Shown here piece by piece: positions 5,922 to 45,915 of a DNA stretch of 64,000 bases (positions are counted from its first letter, which is position 1; the number at the start of each line of letters is the position of its first letter). The DNA is from Candidatus Eiseniibacteriota bacterium (lineage in GTDB: Bacteria > Eisenbacteria > RBG-16-71-46 > CAIMUX01 > VGJL01): assembly GCA_016867495.1 (NCBI GenBank), contig VGJL01000002.1:11185-75184 (forward strand), written 5' to 3'. Position numbers and translations under genes: made by a program. The notes under the pieces were generated by a model. It worked only from the letters and a program-made list of their open reading frames with translations, made no database searches and had not been told where the DNA came from.

Positions 5922-7445
5922 ATGGGAGAGGCGCATCAGTTGGGCGAGCTGATCATCAGGCTGCTGCAGGGCGGGCTCGGAAATCTCGCGTCCTACCTGG
6001 CCGCGCACGTGCTCCTCTGCCTTGTTCCGGCCTTCTTCATTGCGGGGGCGATGACCGCGCTTGTCCCGAAGCAGGCCATTACCCGCCTACTCGGGCGCAG
6101 CACCCCTCGGGCGATCTCATACCCGGCCGCGGCCCTCGCGGGATCGGTCCTGGCCGTCTGCTCCTGCACGATCGTTCCGATCTTCGCGGGGATTTACAGG
6201 AAGGGGGCCGGTCTGGGACCGGCCATCACCTTCCTCTTCTTCGCCCCCGCTGCGAACATCCTCGCGCTGATCTACACGGGCGGCCTGATCGGCGCGGATC
6301 TCGCCATCGCTCGTCTGATTCTCTCTCTCGCTTTCGGCATCGGCATCGGCATGATCATGGCGTTGATCTTTCGCCATGAGGACGCGGCGCACGATCGAGA
6401 CACAGACGCGCTCTTCGCAGGGGCATCGGAAGGAACGCGGAGCCCGCTGTACTTCCTTCTTGGCCTGGTTGTGGTGCTGCTCGTCGGAACGTTGAAGCTC
6501 GACTTCCTCAGCAGAGCCTATGCAGAGATCACACTGTCATTCGCCGGGGGGGTCGGTTTGCAGGAAGCGCTCCTTCGTCTCATTCCCTTTGACGCGACGC
6601 GGGGGGAGGAAGGGGTGAGCGTTCAGGGAGCGATCCTGATCGCTTTCCTTGCGCTCATCGCCGTCACGGCGTGGCGCGGGCTCAGAAACATCGATGAGGG
6701 ATGGAACCGGTGGGCCAAGGCCTCCCTGGCTCTCATGGCGGTCACACTGTTGATCGCGGCGGCGCGAATCGCTCCCCGCCCCGAGGGCCTCTCCATTGGA
6801 TTCACCGGCCGCTTCGTCGGAATGGGGCTCGGCATGACGGGAATCGCCTTGATGGCGCGATGGCGCCTCGGCGCCGACGAGACGCGCGCCTGGCTCGCGG
6901 AGAGCTACAGATTCATCCGCCAGATCTTCCCCCTGCTCATCGTCGGAGTGTTCGCGGTAGGCATTGCCCGCCAGGTCATCCGCCCCGAATGGATCAAGTC
7001 TCTCGCCGGGGGCAACACGCTGCTGGGGAATGCCGCCGGGGTGCTCTTCGGAGTCTTCATGTACTTCCCGACGCTGGTGGAAGTCCCGATCGCCAAGATG
7101 TTCCTCTCGCTCGGGATGCATCGAGGCCCGCTCCTGGCGTATCTGATGGCTGATCCCGAGCTGAGCCTGCAGAGCATACTGATCATCTCGGCTATCATCG
7201 GTCGAACGAAGACCTGGACGTACGTGGGCTTGGTCGCGGTCTTCAGCGCGCTCGCCGGACTCATCTACGGCGCGTGGGTGGACCGCAAGGGGATCGCGCT
7301 CCTCTTCGTCTATCTCATCGTCTTACTCAGCGTTGTCGCGCTGGGTCTGCTCCTGGTGAAAAGACGCAATCGTCGGCGAGCCGCGGCGCGCCTGCTAGCA
7401 TCTCAGGTGCTGTCAAGTCCGTCTGACTCCCCTTGCGGTTCATGA
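5922..7445 (+). CDS. Permease, ArsP/DUF318-like (predicted organoarsenical/metalloid permease family)
   Basis: Track ORF starts at TTG 5898, inside the operator-like repeat, so it was trimmed to the ATG at 5922. Polytopic. The motif CSCTIVPIFAGIYRKGAGLGPAITFLFFAPAANI is typical of the two-Cys permease family found in ars clusters. Confidence 0.75.
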   Translation: MGEAHQLGELIIRLLQGGLGNLASYLAAHVLLCLVPAFFIAGAMTALVPKQAITRLLGRSTPRAISYPAAALAGSVLAVCSCTIVPIFAGIYRKGAGLGPAITFLFFAPAANILALIYTGGLIGADLAIARLILSLAFGIGIGMIMALIFRHEDAAHDRDTDALFAGASEGTRSPLYFLLGLVVVLLVGTLKLDFLSRAYAEITLSFAGGVGLQEALLRLIPFDATRGEEGVSVQGAILIAFLALIAVTAWRGLRNIDEGWNRWAKASLALMAVTLLIAAARIAPRPEGLSIGFTGRFVGMGLGMTGIALMARWRLGADETRAWLAESYRFIRQIFPLLIVGVFAVGIARQVIRPEWIKSLAGGNTLLGNAAGVLFGVFMYFPTLVEVPIAKMFLSLGMHRGPLLAYLMADPELSLQSILIISAIIGRTKTWTYVGLVAVFSALAGLIYGAWVDRKGIALLFVYLIVLLSVVALGLLLVKRRNRRRAAARLLASQVLSSPSDSPCGS

Positions 7446-7458
7446 AGGAGGTGGCTTC

Positions 7459-7692
7459 ATGTCGAGTGTCCTTGTGCTCGGTCCCGGATGCCAGAAGTGT
7501 CAGACTCTCTATGAGCGGGTCACGCAGGCGGCGGAGGAGATGGGTCTCGCCTGCGAGATCGCCAAGGTGACCGACATCGAGGCCATCGTCGGCTTCGGCG
7601 TCCTCTCGACCCCGGCGCTCGTAGTCGACGGTACGGTCAAGATGAGTGGCCGCGTTCCGACGGTCGCGCAACTGAAGGAGATGCTCAAGTGA
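7459..7692 (+). CDS. Thioredoxin-fold redox-active disulfide protein (redox-active disulfide protein 2 type)
   Basis: 77 aa: VLVLGPGCQKCQTLYE...STPALVVDG. CxxC in a thioredoxin-like context. Commonly linked to ArsP-like permeases. Confidence 0.85.
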   Translation: MSSVLVLGPGCQKCQTLYERVTQAAEEMGLACEIAKVTDIEAIVGFGVLSTPALVVDGTVKMSGRVPTVAQLKEMLK

Positions 7693-8231
7693 AGGAACCT
7701 CGGGCCTTGAGCTATGCCCCAGATCGCGGCGGCTGGATGCTTGGTTTGTCGAGTCGCCCTCTTGTCGTCGCGACGGCGCTCGCTCTCCTACTCGTCGGAG
7801 GCGGCCTTCTTGCCTATGCGGCGGCCGATGATCCCAAGCCCGTCGCTCCGGCCGATACTCTGGACTCCGCGAGCGATCAAGCCGCGCTCTCGCGCCAGAT
7901 CATCTCCTACTACTTCCACACCACGAAGCGCTGCGTGTCCTGCCGCAAGATCGAGGCCTATGGGCGGGAGGCGATCGAGGCCGGTTTCCCCGAGCAGTTG
8001 CGCCGCGGCGAAATCGTCTGGCTTCCCGTCAACATCGACGAGAAGGACAACGAGCACTTCGTGGAGGACTATCAGCTTTTCACCAAGTCGATCATCCTCG
8101 TGGAAAGGAACGACACCACGCAGGTTCGCTGGAAGAACCTCTCGCGGGTCTGGGAGCTGCTGAACGACAAGTCGCGCTTCGTGCAATATGTCCAGGAGGA
8201 GACGCGCGCCTATATGGAGTCACCGAACTGA
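7689..8231 (+). CDS. Membrane-anchored thioredoxin-like protein, ArsF family-like
   Basis: 180 aa with an N-terminal TM segment and then ISYYFHTTKRCVSCRKIEAYG...WLPVNIDEKDNEHFVEDYQLF, which matches my memory of the ArsF-family pattern. The start may instead be the internal Met at 7737. Confidence 0.6.
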   Translation: MKEPRALSYAPDRGGWMLGLSSRPLVVATALALLLVGGGLLAYAAADDPKPVAPADTLDSASDQAALSRQIISYYFHTTKRCVSCRKIEAYGREAIEAGFPEQLRRGEIVWLPVNIDEKDNEHFVEDYQLFTKSIILVERNDTTQVRWKNLSRVWELLNDKSRFVQYVQEETRAYMESPN

Positions 8232-40858: not shown

Positions 40859-41959
40859 GTGACGCCGCTGGCGACGACCCGGCGATTCATCCCGCCCTAT
40901 CTGGCGGCATGGGTTCCCATCGCCGGGCTCCTTGCGGCGATGCTCCGTCTGACGCCGGGGACGACATGGACCGGCGCCCTGGCCGTCGCGATTCCCGGCT
41001 CGGCGCTCCTTTCCTTCCTCTGTGTCGCGATCCGCTATCCCGTGCGCGGGCTGCCGGCAGAACGGATGCCGGTGTCGCGCTTGCTCGCGCTCCACCTGGG
41101 CGGCGCAGCCTTCGCGACGGCGGTCTGGCTCGGCGCGCTCAGGCTCTGGGTCGAGGTCCTCGGGCAGACGCGACCGTTCGAGCTCCTGCCGGAGGCCTTC
41201 CGGAGCCACGCGCCGCTGCTCGCGGCCGCCGGGTTGCTGCTCTATCTGCTGGCCGTGACGTTTCACTCGCTCCTGCGCGCGGTGGAGCGGAGCCGCGAGG
41301 CCGAAAGGCGCGCCCTGGAGCTGAGCCTCATCGCGCGCGACGCGGAGATCGCCCTGCTCAGGTCCCAGGTCGATCCGCACTTTCTCTTCAATGCGCTGAA
41401 CTCGATCGCCGGCCTCACGCGGGACGATCCGGATCGCGCGCGCACTCTCTGCCTGCGTCTCGGTGACTTCCTCCGGGCGGGACTCAGGATCGGGAGTCGG
41501 GCGCGCATTTCGCTCCGCGAGGAGCTGGCTCTCGCCCGCGACTACCTCGAGATCGAGCGGATCCGCTTCGGCGCAAGGCTCCGGGTCGCGGAGGATGTCG
41601 ACGAGGCAGGCCTCTCGTGCCCCGTGCCGCCCTTGATCCTCCTGCCTCTGCTCGAGAACGCTGTGCGTCATGGGATCTCGGGACTGGTCGAGGGAGGCGA
41701 GGTGCTGATCGGCGTTCGCGTGGGGGGAGGGGGCATCGAGATCATTGTCGAGAACCCTCGCGACGCCGAGGCGCGATCGAGGGCCGGGGAAGGGATCGGG
41801 CTGCGGAACGTTCGCCGACGGCTGGAGACGCTCTACGGCCGGGCGGGGGGACTCGCGATCCGAGAGACGCCGGAGAGCTTCAGGATCGAGATCGCGATTC
41901 CCCGGCAACTCGCGCCGGAATCGGGCGACGGCGGCGGCGCGAGCGAGAGGCAAGGATGA
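40859..41959 (+). CDS. Sensor histidine kinase, LytS/YehU (His_kinase) family
   Basis: Membrane N-terminus, then LLRSQVDPHFLFNALNSIAGL (the family H-box) and an HATPase region LLENAVRHGI...GIGLRNVRRRLE. Confidence 0.85.
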   Translation: MTPLATTRRFIPPYLAAWVPIAGLLAAMLRLTPGTTWTGALAVAIPGSALLSFLCVAIRYPVRGLPAERMPVSRLLALHLGGAAFATAVWLGALRLWVEVLGQTRPFELLPEAFRSHAPLLAAAGLLLYLLAVTFHSLLRAVERSREAERRALELSLIARDAEIALLRSQVDPHFLFNALNSIAGLTRDDPDRARTLCLRLGDFLRAGLRIGSRARISLREELALARDYLEIERIRFGARLRVAEDVDEAGLSCPVPPLILLPLLENAVRHGISGLVEGGEVLIGVRVGGGGIEIIVENPRDAEARSRAGEGIGLRNVRRRLETLYGRAGGLAIRETPESFRIEIAIPRQLAPESGDGGGASERQG

Positions 41960-42768
41960 TGAGCAAGACCAGCGATCTGCGCCTCCTCATCGTGGATGAC
42001 GAGGAGCCGGCCCGGCTGCTGCTGCGGGACTATCTGCGCGGCGCGCCCGGCGTGACGATCGTGGGGGAGTGCGCGGACGGTTTCGCGGCGGTCAAGGCGG
42101 TCACGGACCTCGATCCCGACCTCCTCCTGCTCGACATCCAGATGCCCAAGCTCGACGGATTAGAAGTCCTCGAGCTGATCGGGCGTGAGATCGCGGTCGT
42201 CTTCGTCACGGCCTATGACGAGTACTCGATCCGGGCCTTCGAGATCCACGCGGTCGACTATCTGCTGAAGCCCTACTCGCGCGAGCGGCTCCTCGAGGCG
42301 CTCGATCGGGCCCGCGAGAGGGTTGCGCGGCTCGGCCCGCGCCGGAAGGGAGCGCCGGCGTCGCAAGCCGCCGCCACCGCCGGCGCCGGGAGCGCGACTC
42401 TGCCCGAGACGGTCGCCGCCATGGACATGCGCCGCTCGAGGCGGCCGCTCGAACGGATCCTCATCCGAGACAGAGCGCGCATCCATGTGATCCCGGTCGG
42501 CTCGATCCACTACGTGGAGGCGCAGGACGACTACATCTCCATCGTGACCAAGGACAGGAAGCTCCTCAAGCAGCAGACCCTGAACGAACTGGGGCAGGCG
42601 CTGGACGAGAGGCGCTTCGTCCGCGTTCATAGATCGTTCCTGCTCAACATCGAGCATCTGGCGAGGATCGAGACTTACGCGAAGGACTCGAGGATCGCGA
42701 TCCTGAAGAGCGGCGCCCAGCTCCCGGTCAGCCGGAGCGGATACGAGAGGCTGCGGGGGTTGCTGTGA
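41956..42768 (+). CDS. LytTR-family response regulator
   Basis: ATG 41956 overlaps the kinase stop. Receiver domain LRLLIVDDEEPAR...LLLLDIQMPKLDG, then a C-terminal LytTR domain (IHYVEAQDDYISIVTKDRKLLKQQTLNELG...FVRVHRSFLLN). Confidence 0.9.
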   Translation: MMSKTSDLRLLIVDDEEPARLLLRDYLRGAPGVTIVGECADGFAAVKAVTDLDPDLLLLDIQMPKLDGLEVLELIGREIAVVFVTAYDEYSIRAFEIHAVDYLLKPYSRERLLEALDRARERVARLGPRRKGAPASQAAATAGAGSATLPETVAAMDMRRSRRPLERILIRDRARIHVIPVGSIHYVEAQDDYISIVTKDRKLLKQQTLNELGQALDERRFVRVHRSFLLNIEHLARIETYAKDSRIAILKSGAQLPVSRSGYERLRGLL

Positions 42769-45597: not shown

Positions 45598-45668
45598 CGG
45601 GACCTCCCTGAAAGATGCGGGCCGTTACGGGCCTCGCTGGGGCGTCATGACATCCTCCCGATCGGAAC

Positions 45669-45701
45669 TGGCCTGGGCCGCCCGCTCGCTGACCCAGGCC
45701 A
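45669..45701 (-). promoter_or_regulatory. 9-bp-stem hairpin between the peptide gene and the peptidase gene (attenuator/processing-site candidate)
   Basis: TGGCCTGGG (45669-45677), a 15-nt loop, then CCCAGGCCA (45693-45701). It lies 23 nt downstream of the peptide stop on the minus strand. Confidence 0.4.
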
Positions 45702-45723
45702 GACCGATCGCTCGGATGGGCTT

Positions 45724-45837
45724 CTAGAACGGATCGGCGATCAGCCGGGGCCAGCAGTTCGGCCAGCAGTAGTAGCACGGCAGGCAGATGTGCGCCCTTC
45801 CCTGCACCTGGCCGGAGACCTTCTTCAGCTCGAGCAT
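45724..45837 (-). CDS. 37-aa Cys/Trp/Tyr-rich candidate RiPP precursor peptide (not in the ORF track)
   Basis: Manual translation: MLELKKVSGQVQGRAHICLPCYYCWPNCWPRLIADPF*. GGAGG lies 8 nt upstream of the ATG (45837). 35 of 37 sense codons end in G/C, matching the local coding bias. It lies between a radical SAM/SPASM gene and a peptidase/ABC exporter pair on the same strand. Confidence 0.6.
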   Translation of the reverse strand: MLELKKVSGQVQGRAHICLPCYYCWPNCWPRLIADPF

Positions 45838-45915
45838 TCCTCTCACCTCCTGTCCTTTGGGATTCTCAGGCGCCCCGCAACGATCGACCAGGCGCCGCCC
45901 GGCGGGAGCCCCGGC

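Follow-up and report, generated by a model that had tools for sequence, protein, structure and literature searches.

A short precursor beside a radical-SAM/SPASM enzyme in Candidatus Eiseniibacteriota points to a peptide family with a repeated Cys-x-Pro motif and possibly new chemistry

What does a radical S-adenosylmethionine (SAM) enzyme with a SPASM domain do to a 37-residue peptide encoded next to it, and which residues of the peptide does it act upon? The question is raised by a 64,000-nucleotide stretch of contig VGJL01000002.1 from a Candidatus Eiseniibacteriota bacterium (this whole stretch is meant by "the window" in the following), in which the peptide MLELKKVSGQVQGRAHICLPCYYCWPNCWPRLIADPF is encoded adjacent to such an enzyme. 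In agreement with an initial annotation of the window, the peptide is a short-leader precursor of the RiPP type (peptides that are synthesized ribosomally and modified post-translationally) located directly 3' of the enzyme gene. Residues 18–31 read C18-LP-C21-YY-C24-WPN-C28-WPR upon translation and the final 20 residues comprise four Cys, two Trp, two Tyr, one Phe and four Pro; the cysteine spacing C-x2-C-x2-C-x3-C, the WPN and WPR triads and this composition had all been described correctly. Two competing chemistries had been suggested by these features, one tied to cysteines spaced as in [4Fe-4S] ferredoxins, the other to Trp-Pro-x triads as a cyclophane motif. Comparison with homologues leads to a different picture: the ferredoxin spacing and the Trp-Pro-x triads appear to be coincidental, and the conserved feature as judged from the alignments is a repeated Cys-x-Pro (C-x-P) unit. 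Our data are best read in terms of a radical-SAM/SPASM family of peptides whose C-x-P motif has so far not been described and whose chemistry may be new.

The window peptide starts with the leader motif MLELKKVS; after a linker that varies come the conserved segment (A)H-I-C-L-P-C, the units C-W-P-N and C-W-P-R and the tail LIADPF. Three C-x-P units are thus present among its four cysteines (C18-L-P, C24-W-P and C28-W-P). The underlying open reading frame (ORF) is a genuine gene at the coordinates listed in Table 1 and no chance ORF. It is very short, spurious ORFs abound in high-GC genomes, and the motif content might be taken for a by-product of intergenic DNA with 67% G+C, but comparative data refute this interpretation, to which we assign a negligible probability. 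Forty distinct homologues keep the leader and the Cys and Pro positions on divergent DNA and are always located directly 3' of the enzyme gene. Furthermore, the gene is preceded by a Shine-Dalgarno sequence, and the motif CxxCxxCxxxC occurs just once in the six frames of the window, i.e., in the precursor, against a mean of 0.03 in 100 mononucleotide shuffles; the same is true for three C-x-P units in close succession (100-shuffle mean 0.11). Public gene callers annotated the identical 37-residue product on 13 contigs. An alternative GTG start three codons 5' of the ATG overlaps the Shine-Dalgarno sequence, and a search with the resulting 40-residue peptide gave no match except itself. No family model for the window peptide or for a diverse set of C-x-P peptides was obtained from NCBIfam (release of June 2026) and Pfam; matches were confined to a chance-level one to streptosactin and to PG_binding_1 in one architecture.

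The 40 distinct peptides that form the close clade of the precursor were collected by enzyme-anchored look-ups and by a profile search built on 16 peptides. They are encoded in a conserved cassette in which the enzyme gene is followed by one to three precursor genes, a gene for a protein with an HExxH motif and a gene for an ATP-binding cassette (ABC) exporter. The sequence I-C-x-P-C is present in every one of them, is preceded by His in 39 and is followed by further C-x-P units. Altogether, 141 of 191 cysteines lie within C-x-P, and the conserved second Cys accounts for 35 of the 50 that do not. The four-cysteine spacing C-x2-C-x2-C-x3-C, on the other hand, is found in only four of the 40 peptides. 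The canonical [4Fe-4S] ferredoxin ligand motif is CxxCxxCxxxCP, and a Pro directly after the fourth Cys occurs in none of the close-clade peptides. The proposed ferredoxin identity holds for the spacing of the window peptide and fails at the canonical CP, which is broken by a Trp between the fourth Cys and Pro. The spacing itself arises where CxPC is followed at an interval of two residues by CxP and after one more residue by another CxP.

The Trp-Pro-x triads fare no better as a cyclophane motif. Any Trp-Pro pair is present in 16 of the 40 peptides and an equal number has a core devoid of Trp; WPR is restricted to the window peptide itself and WPN occurs in two peptides. As 20 of the 25 Trp-Pro pairs are part of C-W-P, the Trp residues appear simply to fill the middle of C-x-P, a position that varies freely. 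The alignment of homologues called for in the initial annotation consequently retains the first two cysteines and C-x-P, and neither the triads nor the four-cysteine spacing. The concept of two competing chemistries is left without support because Trp fills the variable position and the spacing follows from juxtaposed units, neither of the highlighted motifs being conserved. Among the chemical options considered earlier, thioether formation with Cys docking on an auxiliary cluster remains the leading candidate, while the homologues lend no support to a cyclophane or an Fe-S motif.

C-x-P peptides are by no means restricted to the close clade. Two motifs specific to the enzyme were used to scan the species representatives of GTDB, with 286 confirmed relatives of the enzyme as the result, and a metagenome collection contributed at least 482; 160 loci with enzyme relatives of 32–69% identity were retained. 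The closest relatives, with 67% identity, stem from Krumholzibacteriota, and further hosts comprise Patescibacteria, Sporomusaceae, Chloroflexota, Latescibacterota, Desulfobacterota and Bacteroidota as well as the archaeal Methanosarcinales, Methanothrix, Bathyarchaeia and Woesearchaeota. The enzyme gene is accompanied by a small ORF of three or more C-x-P units at a distance of up to 4 kb in 130 of the 160 loci, and in 115 this ORF occupies the same strand and is within 1 kb. The density of such ORFs near the enzyme gene (same strand, 1 kb) amounts to 0.434 per kb vs. 0.0123 per kb elsewhere in the loci. Within 120 distinct cores, Pro occupies position +2 of 1,069 of 1,114 cysteines (96%), a figure that is somewhat inflated because the ORFs were chosen for containing at least three C-x-P units; residues other than Cys have Pro at +2 in 2–10% of cases. 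All 20 amino acids occur at position +1 (Gly in 7%), and Arg is found at position +4 of 4.5% of the units. The cores contain 16% Cys, the number of units per peptide ranges from 3 to 28 and the distance between units from 3 to more than 9 residues. Examples include CWPRQQ repeats (Pelosinus, Sporomusa), CRPCPPSQ repeats and bare runs of CIPCKPCGP. Across the phyla, the leaders either follow the pattern M[LF]E[LI]xKV[ST] or contain "...IELVT" and "...K(R/K)VT" as motifs akin to it. These data establish the gene, the cassette, the enzyme-peptide family and a near-absolute Cys-x-Pro rule, and the window peptide is very probably a precursor of this family on which the adjacent enzyme acts.

Several loci of the wider family contain substrates of other architectures. 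In L008 (positions 7275–7817; also in L095, L106 and L107), the C-x-P block resides inside a protein of 170–190 residues whose N-terminus holds a membrane or TAT (twin-arginine translocation)-like segment and whose C-terminus a PG_binding_1 domain (Pfam E 1e-13); its gene is located directly 3' of the enzyme gene. Such proteins suggest that the modification also serves cell-envelope proteins, beyond small secreted peptides. Two or three tandem C-x-P paralogues occur in L029:3507-5296 (Woesearchaeota) and in the metagenome loci L117:148-964 and L122:5109-5964; here, a twin-arginine-like signal (RRDFLRKAG...) precedes a leader-like "...K(R/K/Q)VT" motif and the C-x-P core. In these paralogues, a cytoplasmic radical-SAM enzyme would have substrates that carry a signal peptide. 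L018 (5102–5515), L042, L048, L066, L068 and L120 encode C-x-P proteins, mostly archaeal, with a length of about 100–170 residues and a coiled-coil-like tail, e.g., LDKLTAEVEELKKKVGR, an architecture that does not resemble a peptide of leader and core. The Sporomusaceae loci L022-L073, e.g., those of Sporomusa ovata DSM 2662 (L050) and Pelosinus propionicus DSM 13327 (L026), adjoin tig-clpP-clpX-lon, and the substrate is a C-x-P protein of 90–150 residues with an acidic N-terminal "RPKWDRPEMxEWDDDD" followed by CWPRQQ, CFPRQT or CNPN repeats.

The enzyme encoded in the window matches the Pfam families Radical_SAM (3.1e-20) and SPASM (2.4e-7). In an alignment of 50 sequences, the CxxxCxxC motif (C125/C129/C132) and the seven cysteines of the SPASM domain (C337, C353, C391, C394, C400, C403 and C421) are invariant and an eighth conserved SPASM Cys is absent; at position 332, the Cys of the window enzyme is replaced by Tyr or Phe in most relatives. 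An AlphaFold2 model (mean predicted confidence, pLDDT, 88) consists of an N-terminal domain resembling a RiPP recognition element (RRE; residues ~19–96), the radical-SAM core and the SPASM domain. The N-terminus has the beta3-4/alpha3 topology of the RRE type and aligns with the RRE of CteB, and PqqD matches were obtained for five homologues.

With regard to known maturases, no NCBIfam model reaches its cut-off for the enzyme or for relatives from six other lineages, and by this measure it falls outside every characterized maturase family. The best partial match is AhbD (112 bits), and the top peptide maturase among the 25 NCBIfam matches listed is the sactisynthase StsB, whose match extends over the radical-SAM core as well as the larger part of the SPASM region (101.5 bits vs. 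a cut-off of 625). The model for grasp-with-SPASM maturases matches only the C-terminal part of the enzyme, the AlbA model scores 59.6 bits vs. a cut-off of 850, and SkfB-type models reach 75–84 vs. 300 in relatives. A Foldseek search against the PDB ranked the thioether-forming enzymes CteB and SkfB first, followed by SuiB, TigE, PqqE and the anaerobic sulfatase-maturating enzyme (anSME); the match with CteB (E 2.6e-17) extends over 433 aligned columns and includes the RRE. The family profile gave the same leading pair (SkfB 89, CteB 68, anSME 62 and PqqE 59 bits). As the relationships are distant, the likeness to CteB and SkfB is a mechanistic lead and no family assignment.

Based on these findings, we propose that the enzyme's N-terminally fused RRE binds the leader M-L-E-L-K-K-V-S/T and that the enzyme would then act on every Cys with Pro at +2. 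The Cys thiolate would ligate the auxiliary cluster that is without a conserved fourth Cys ligand, much as auxiliary cluster I is free to bind a substrate Cys in CteB, and the 5'-deoxyadenosyl radical would take a hydrogen atom from a nearby carbon, such that a C-S bond, i.e., a thioether within the triad, results. A local event is argued for because the triad is invariant while the spacing varies. A thioether is favored because of the affinities to CteB, SkfB and StsB, the seven-Cys SPASM domain and this triad-local argument. To our knowledge, the conserved motif residues are the bond partners in all characterized repeat-motif radical-SAM peptides (CX3D, NxxC, KxxxW, WGK, WPR and aromatic-x-x); by analogy with these, Cys and the +2 Pro could be joined in a three-residue thia-macrocycle, a sactionine linkage to a neighboring C-alpha being the conceivable alternative. 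The HExxH protein, which also contains tetratricopeptide repeats (TPR), would finally cut off the leader of about 16 residues, and the ABC transporter would export the product, as the gene content of the cassette suggests. The explanation as a whole, consisting of a leader-bound precursor, triad-local Cys modification, peptidase and exporter, has a probability of roughly 0.55 in our estimation. Taken on its own, the assignment of the chemistry as a thioether, which draws on analogy, falls slightly short of even odds. Distinctly more tentative is its most specific form, in which each triad would become a three-residue thioether macrocycle with the Cys sulfur bonded to one of the carbons of the +2 Pro; a new radical-SAM peptide class, spread over at least 286 species-level genomes of Bacteria and Archaea and extending to protein-level modification of cell-envelope proteins, would be the consequence.

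A number of points weigh against this proposal. In the close clade, a conserved Cys, C21 as the second of I-C-x-P-C, falls outside the C-x-P rule, and the selection of ORFs mentioned above lends the rule some of its apparent strictness. In some lineages, the C-x-P block is part of proteins of 130–190 residues that also contain a coiled coil or a peptidoglycan-binding domain; such larger proteins fit less well to a classical RiPP with leader and core. The best hidden Markov model matches of the catalytic core are AhbD and NirJ, enzymes that do not act on peptides, and identity to CteB and SkfB is 16–20% at TM-scores of about 0.5–0.6. We know of no precedent for a Cys-Pro thioether. Finally, C-x-P is the core of the C-x-P-x-R motif, in which anSME, itself a SPASM enzyme, oxidizes the Cys C-beta without forming a crosslink.

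The last point leads to the main rival of the thioether, an anSME-like reaction with hydrogen abstraction from the C-beta of Cys in a C-x-P turn, giving first a thioaldehyde and subsequently formylglycine or some later product; a crosslink would not form, and Pro would serve solely as a conformational or recognition element. The sulfatase motif of anSME, C/S-x-P-x-R, the restriction of conserved core positions to Cys and the +2 Pro and the appearance of anSME among the structural and profile matches are all in line with such a reaction. Yet Arg at +4 is missing from all but 4.5% of the units, the NCBIfam model for anSME (TIGR03942) gives 55 bits vs. a cut-off of 349 for the enzyme, and the position of the catalytic Asp of anSME, after the YPC ligand, is taken by a near-invariant Ile (Ile354) in the family alignment. 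Moreover, the enzyme family conserves seven SPASM cysteines, whereas both auxiliary clusters are fully Cys-ligated in anSME, and up to 28 aldehydes per peptide seem chemically implausible. We consider this alternative unlikely, albeit less so than metal binding, for which we see a small chance. In that case, CxxCxxCxxxC would bind an Fe-S cluster or another metal, or the cysteines would be converted to metal-chelating heterocycles, and the product would be a metallophore or metal buffer. Thiooxazole-type heterocycles have been reported for the GeoRSP enzyme SbtM and for bufferins made by multinuclear non-heme iron oxidases (MNIO), and the richness of the cores in Cys, with up to 28 units, the His before the first Cys in nearly all close-clade peptides and partial matches of the enzyme and its relatives to the GeoRSP radical-SAM model (59–90 bits) would suit such a function. 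These scores, however, are far below the cut-off of 400, the cassette is devoid of genes for a metal transporter or receptor, and the ferredoxin-like spacing, with no Pro directly after the fourth Cys, is confined to the four close homologues mentioned. A selected Fe-S-binding function is a poor fit because the spacing between cysteines is highly variable.

Least probable among the alternative chemistries, with a very slim chance, is the crosslinking of Trp to the third residue in W-P-N and W-P-R as by WprB or three-residue cyclophane enzymes, either replacing the Cys chemistry or in addition to it. WPR is a proven radical-SAM crosslink motif, WprB joining Trp-C5 to Arg-C-gamma in WPR motifs (PMC11851443), and the window peptide contains one WPR and one WPN. 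The counts given above for close homologues speak against a role of these triads, and so does the occurrence of all 20 residues at the Trp position across the wider family. WprB is a twitch-type enzyme without Aux I cysteines and requires WprC, a partner of about 100 residues (PMC11851443), whereas the window enzyme has a full seven-Cys SPASM domain and a fused RRE, and a WprC-like partner is absent from the cassette; this comparison is one of published features (PMC11851443). The WgkB model reaches 70 bits vs. a cut-off of 650. The enzyme does not belong to the WgkB/WprB or the three-residue cyclophane families.

Returning to the thioether, the system has the generic marks of radical-SAM/SPASM RiPPs, i.e., CxxxCxxC and a seven-Cys SPASM domain, a small precursor next to the enzyme, a conserved leader and an RRE. 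It comes closest to sacti- and ranthipeptides (CteB/thermocellin, SkfB, AlbA, StsB/streptosactin, PapB/freyrasin with CX3D and NxxcB with NxxC), in which a Cys-containing precursor is likewise encoded beside a radical-SAM/SPASM enzyme with RRE, a short repeated motif marks each modification site, and peptidase and ABC exporter belong to the cassette. The nearest solved structures (CteB, SkfB) and the best peptide maturase among the NCBIfam matches listed (StsB) stem from this group. On the other hand, no thioether-synthase model reaches its cut-off for the window enzyme, identity is low, and C-x-P is not accompanied by a conserved Asp, Asn, Thr or Gly acceptor. With anSME, the system as predicted from its genes shares a SPASM radical-SAM enzyme and a Cys followed by x-Pro; however, anSME acts on sulfatases and not on dedicated small peptides, is devoid of an RRE and recognizes a motif with Arg at +4, and its catalytic Asp has no counterpart here. 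WprB/WprA and the triceptides have three-residue units for a radical-SAM enzyme in common with the C-x-P family, and the window peptide contains a literal WPR; in the C-x-P family, in contrast, the invariant first residue is Cys and not an aromatic one, and twitch domain and WprC are replaced by full SPASM domain and fused RRE. The resemblance to the [4Fe-4S] ferredoxin motif ends with identical Cys spacing. A search of full-text literature, including literal peptide strings, did not turn up any account of radical-SAM systems with C-x-P; most subscription papers lie outside this search and a prior description is possible.

In the window, all genes of the cassette reside on the minus strand in the order radical-SAM/SPASM enzyme with fused RRE, precursor, TPR/HExxH peptidase and ABC exporter (Table 1), and the precursor gene starts 79 nt past the stop codon of the enzyme gene. 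The 133-nt intergenic region 3' of the precursor gene folds with -68.5 kcal/mol (z = -3.6), a value matched by none of 200 shuffles. In L165, L171, L172, L167 and L168, a similar hairpin is located 3' of the last precursor gene; the structure is kept across related cassettes, the sequence is not. A terminator pattern scan did not flag the hairpin of the window, and scans of the window for promoters and terminators and against Rfam returned nothing relevant and no family, respectively. The hairpin is probably an intercistronic attenuator or an mRNA-stabilizing element and may set the ratio of precursor to enzyme.

Table 1. Position of the features described for the window and for related cassettes.
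Feature	Position	Strand	Remarks
Precursor peptide gene	45724..45837	−	37 aa, MLELKKVSGQVQGRAHICLPCYYCWPNCWPRLIADPF; from translation
Shine-Dalgarno sequence GGAGG	45846..45850	−	8 nt 5' of precursor ATG; read from sequence
Radical-SAM/SPASM maturase, 434 aa	45916..47220	−	Public gene-caller start; ORF open up to 47292
RNA hairpin, GC-rich, no U-tract	45651..45718	−	Immediately 3' of precursor stop codon; from fold of the 133-nt intergenic region
Hairpins of related cassettes, GC-rich, no U-tract	L165:4121-4202; L171:2090-2160; L172:4023-4172; L168:4186-4334		
Cytoplasmic TPR + HExxH...EGAAEY protein (gluzincin/Peptidase_MA-like), 329 aa	44608..45597	−	
ABC exporter (MsbA/HlyB-like half transporter), 625 aa	42728..44605	−	Pfam ABC_membrane and ABC_tran; public gene call
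TPR-CHAT protein, 1072 aa	47381..50599	−	Directly 5' of enzyme gene; Pfam CHAT 1.8e-65 and TPRs

The HExxH protein keeps the same position in all close-clade cassettes and, on account of its sequence motifs, is most likely the leader peptidase. Residues H200-E201-x-x-H204 and E219-G-A-A are invariant in nine orthologues, behind TPR repeats, and five of the nine match Pfam Peptidase_MA_2 (best E 3.7e-8). The protein from the window itself has no confident NCBIfam or Pfam family match, and a PDB profile search gave TPR matches only. Three families of HExxH partners exist, that of the window clade, c1 (34 loci) and c9 (18 loci). Homology between them was considered and rejected at hhalign probabilities of at most 1%; they are treated as analogous because hhalign aligns nothing beyond the HExxH motif. 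The exporter, kept downstream in L001, L002, L003, L165, L167, L168, L172 and L173, matches the MsbA-like model of NCBIfam below its cut-off, and a C39 peptidase domain is absent according to the Pfam scan.

Further genes in the vicinity are not part of the conserved cassette. The TPR-CHAT protein, with a caspase fold, shows a weak match to HaaT, a TPR protein of cyclophane systems (53 bits vs. a cut-off of 1125). Other close-clade loci lack it 5' of the enzyme gene and contain an M28 peptidase, kinases or regulators instead. A gene pair for a His_kinase (PF06580) and a LytTR response regulator (40859–42768, plus strand) is convergent with the exporter gene and overlaps its 3' end; different regulators (sigma-54 activators, GerE-type) are encoded near other close-clade cassettes. 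A peptide-sensing role of the pair is conceivable. The TPR-CHAT protein and the two-component system were considered as core parts and dropped, as neither is kept in related cassettes.

Some further observations concern individual members of the close clade. A C-terminal aromatic residue, often in D-P-[FWY] or S-P-W, is present in 13 of the 40 peptides, including that of the window (45724–45735, ...ADPF), is commonest among peptides of 34–39 residues and may be a recognition or export feature. On contig CAZAHC010000007.1 of a "Fibrobacteraceae" metagenome-assembled genome (L168:938-2090, identical with L002), a 72-residue protein with a weak match to a lanthipeptide leader domain and a SAM methyltransferase are encoded divergently, 5' of a C-x-P cassette with two different precursors. 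L081:3485-4102 constitutes a decayed cassette, in which the precursor ORF MLELKKVSVEVEERSHKDTF... runs directly into a fragment of an ABC transporter gene; core and peptidase gene appear to have been deleted.

Radical-SAM/SPASM peptide systems are a main source of antibiotic leads, e.g., darobactin, and of novel crosslinks in peptides, and the characterized short motifs KxxxW, NxxC, CX3D, WGK and WPR each revealed a distinct chemistry. The C-x-P rule stands out for its strictness (96% of the cysteines in the ORFs so selected have Pro at +2) and for its wide distribution, ranging from cultured Sporomusa and Pelosinus to methanogens, Chloroflexota and candidate phyla. Cultured, sequenced strains and a compact cassette of three to four genes render the chemistry directly testable. 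If Pro does not take part in a bond, its role as a universal presentation element, as in the sulfatase motif, would inform on the recognition of Cys by SPASM enzymes. A crosslink involving proline, if true, would be a new bond type, and the Cys-Pro macrocycle a so far undescribed crosslink that defines a new class of radical-SAM peptides reaching as far as the gene-poor Patescibacteria.

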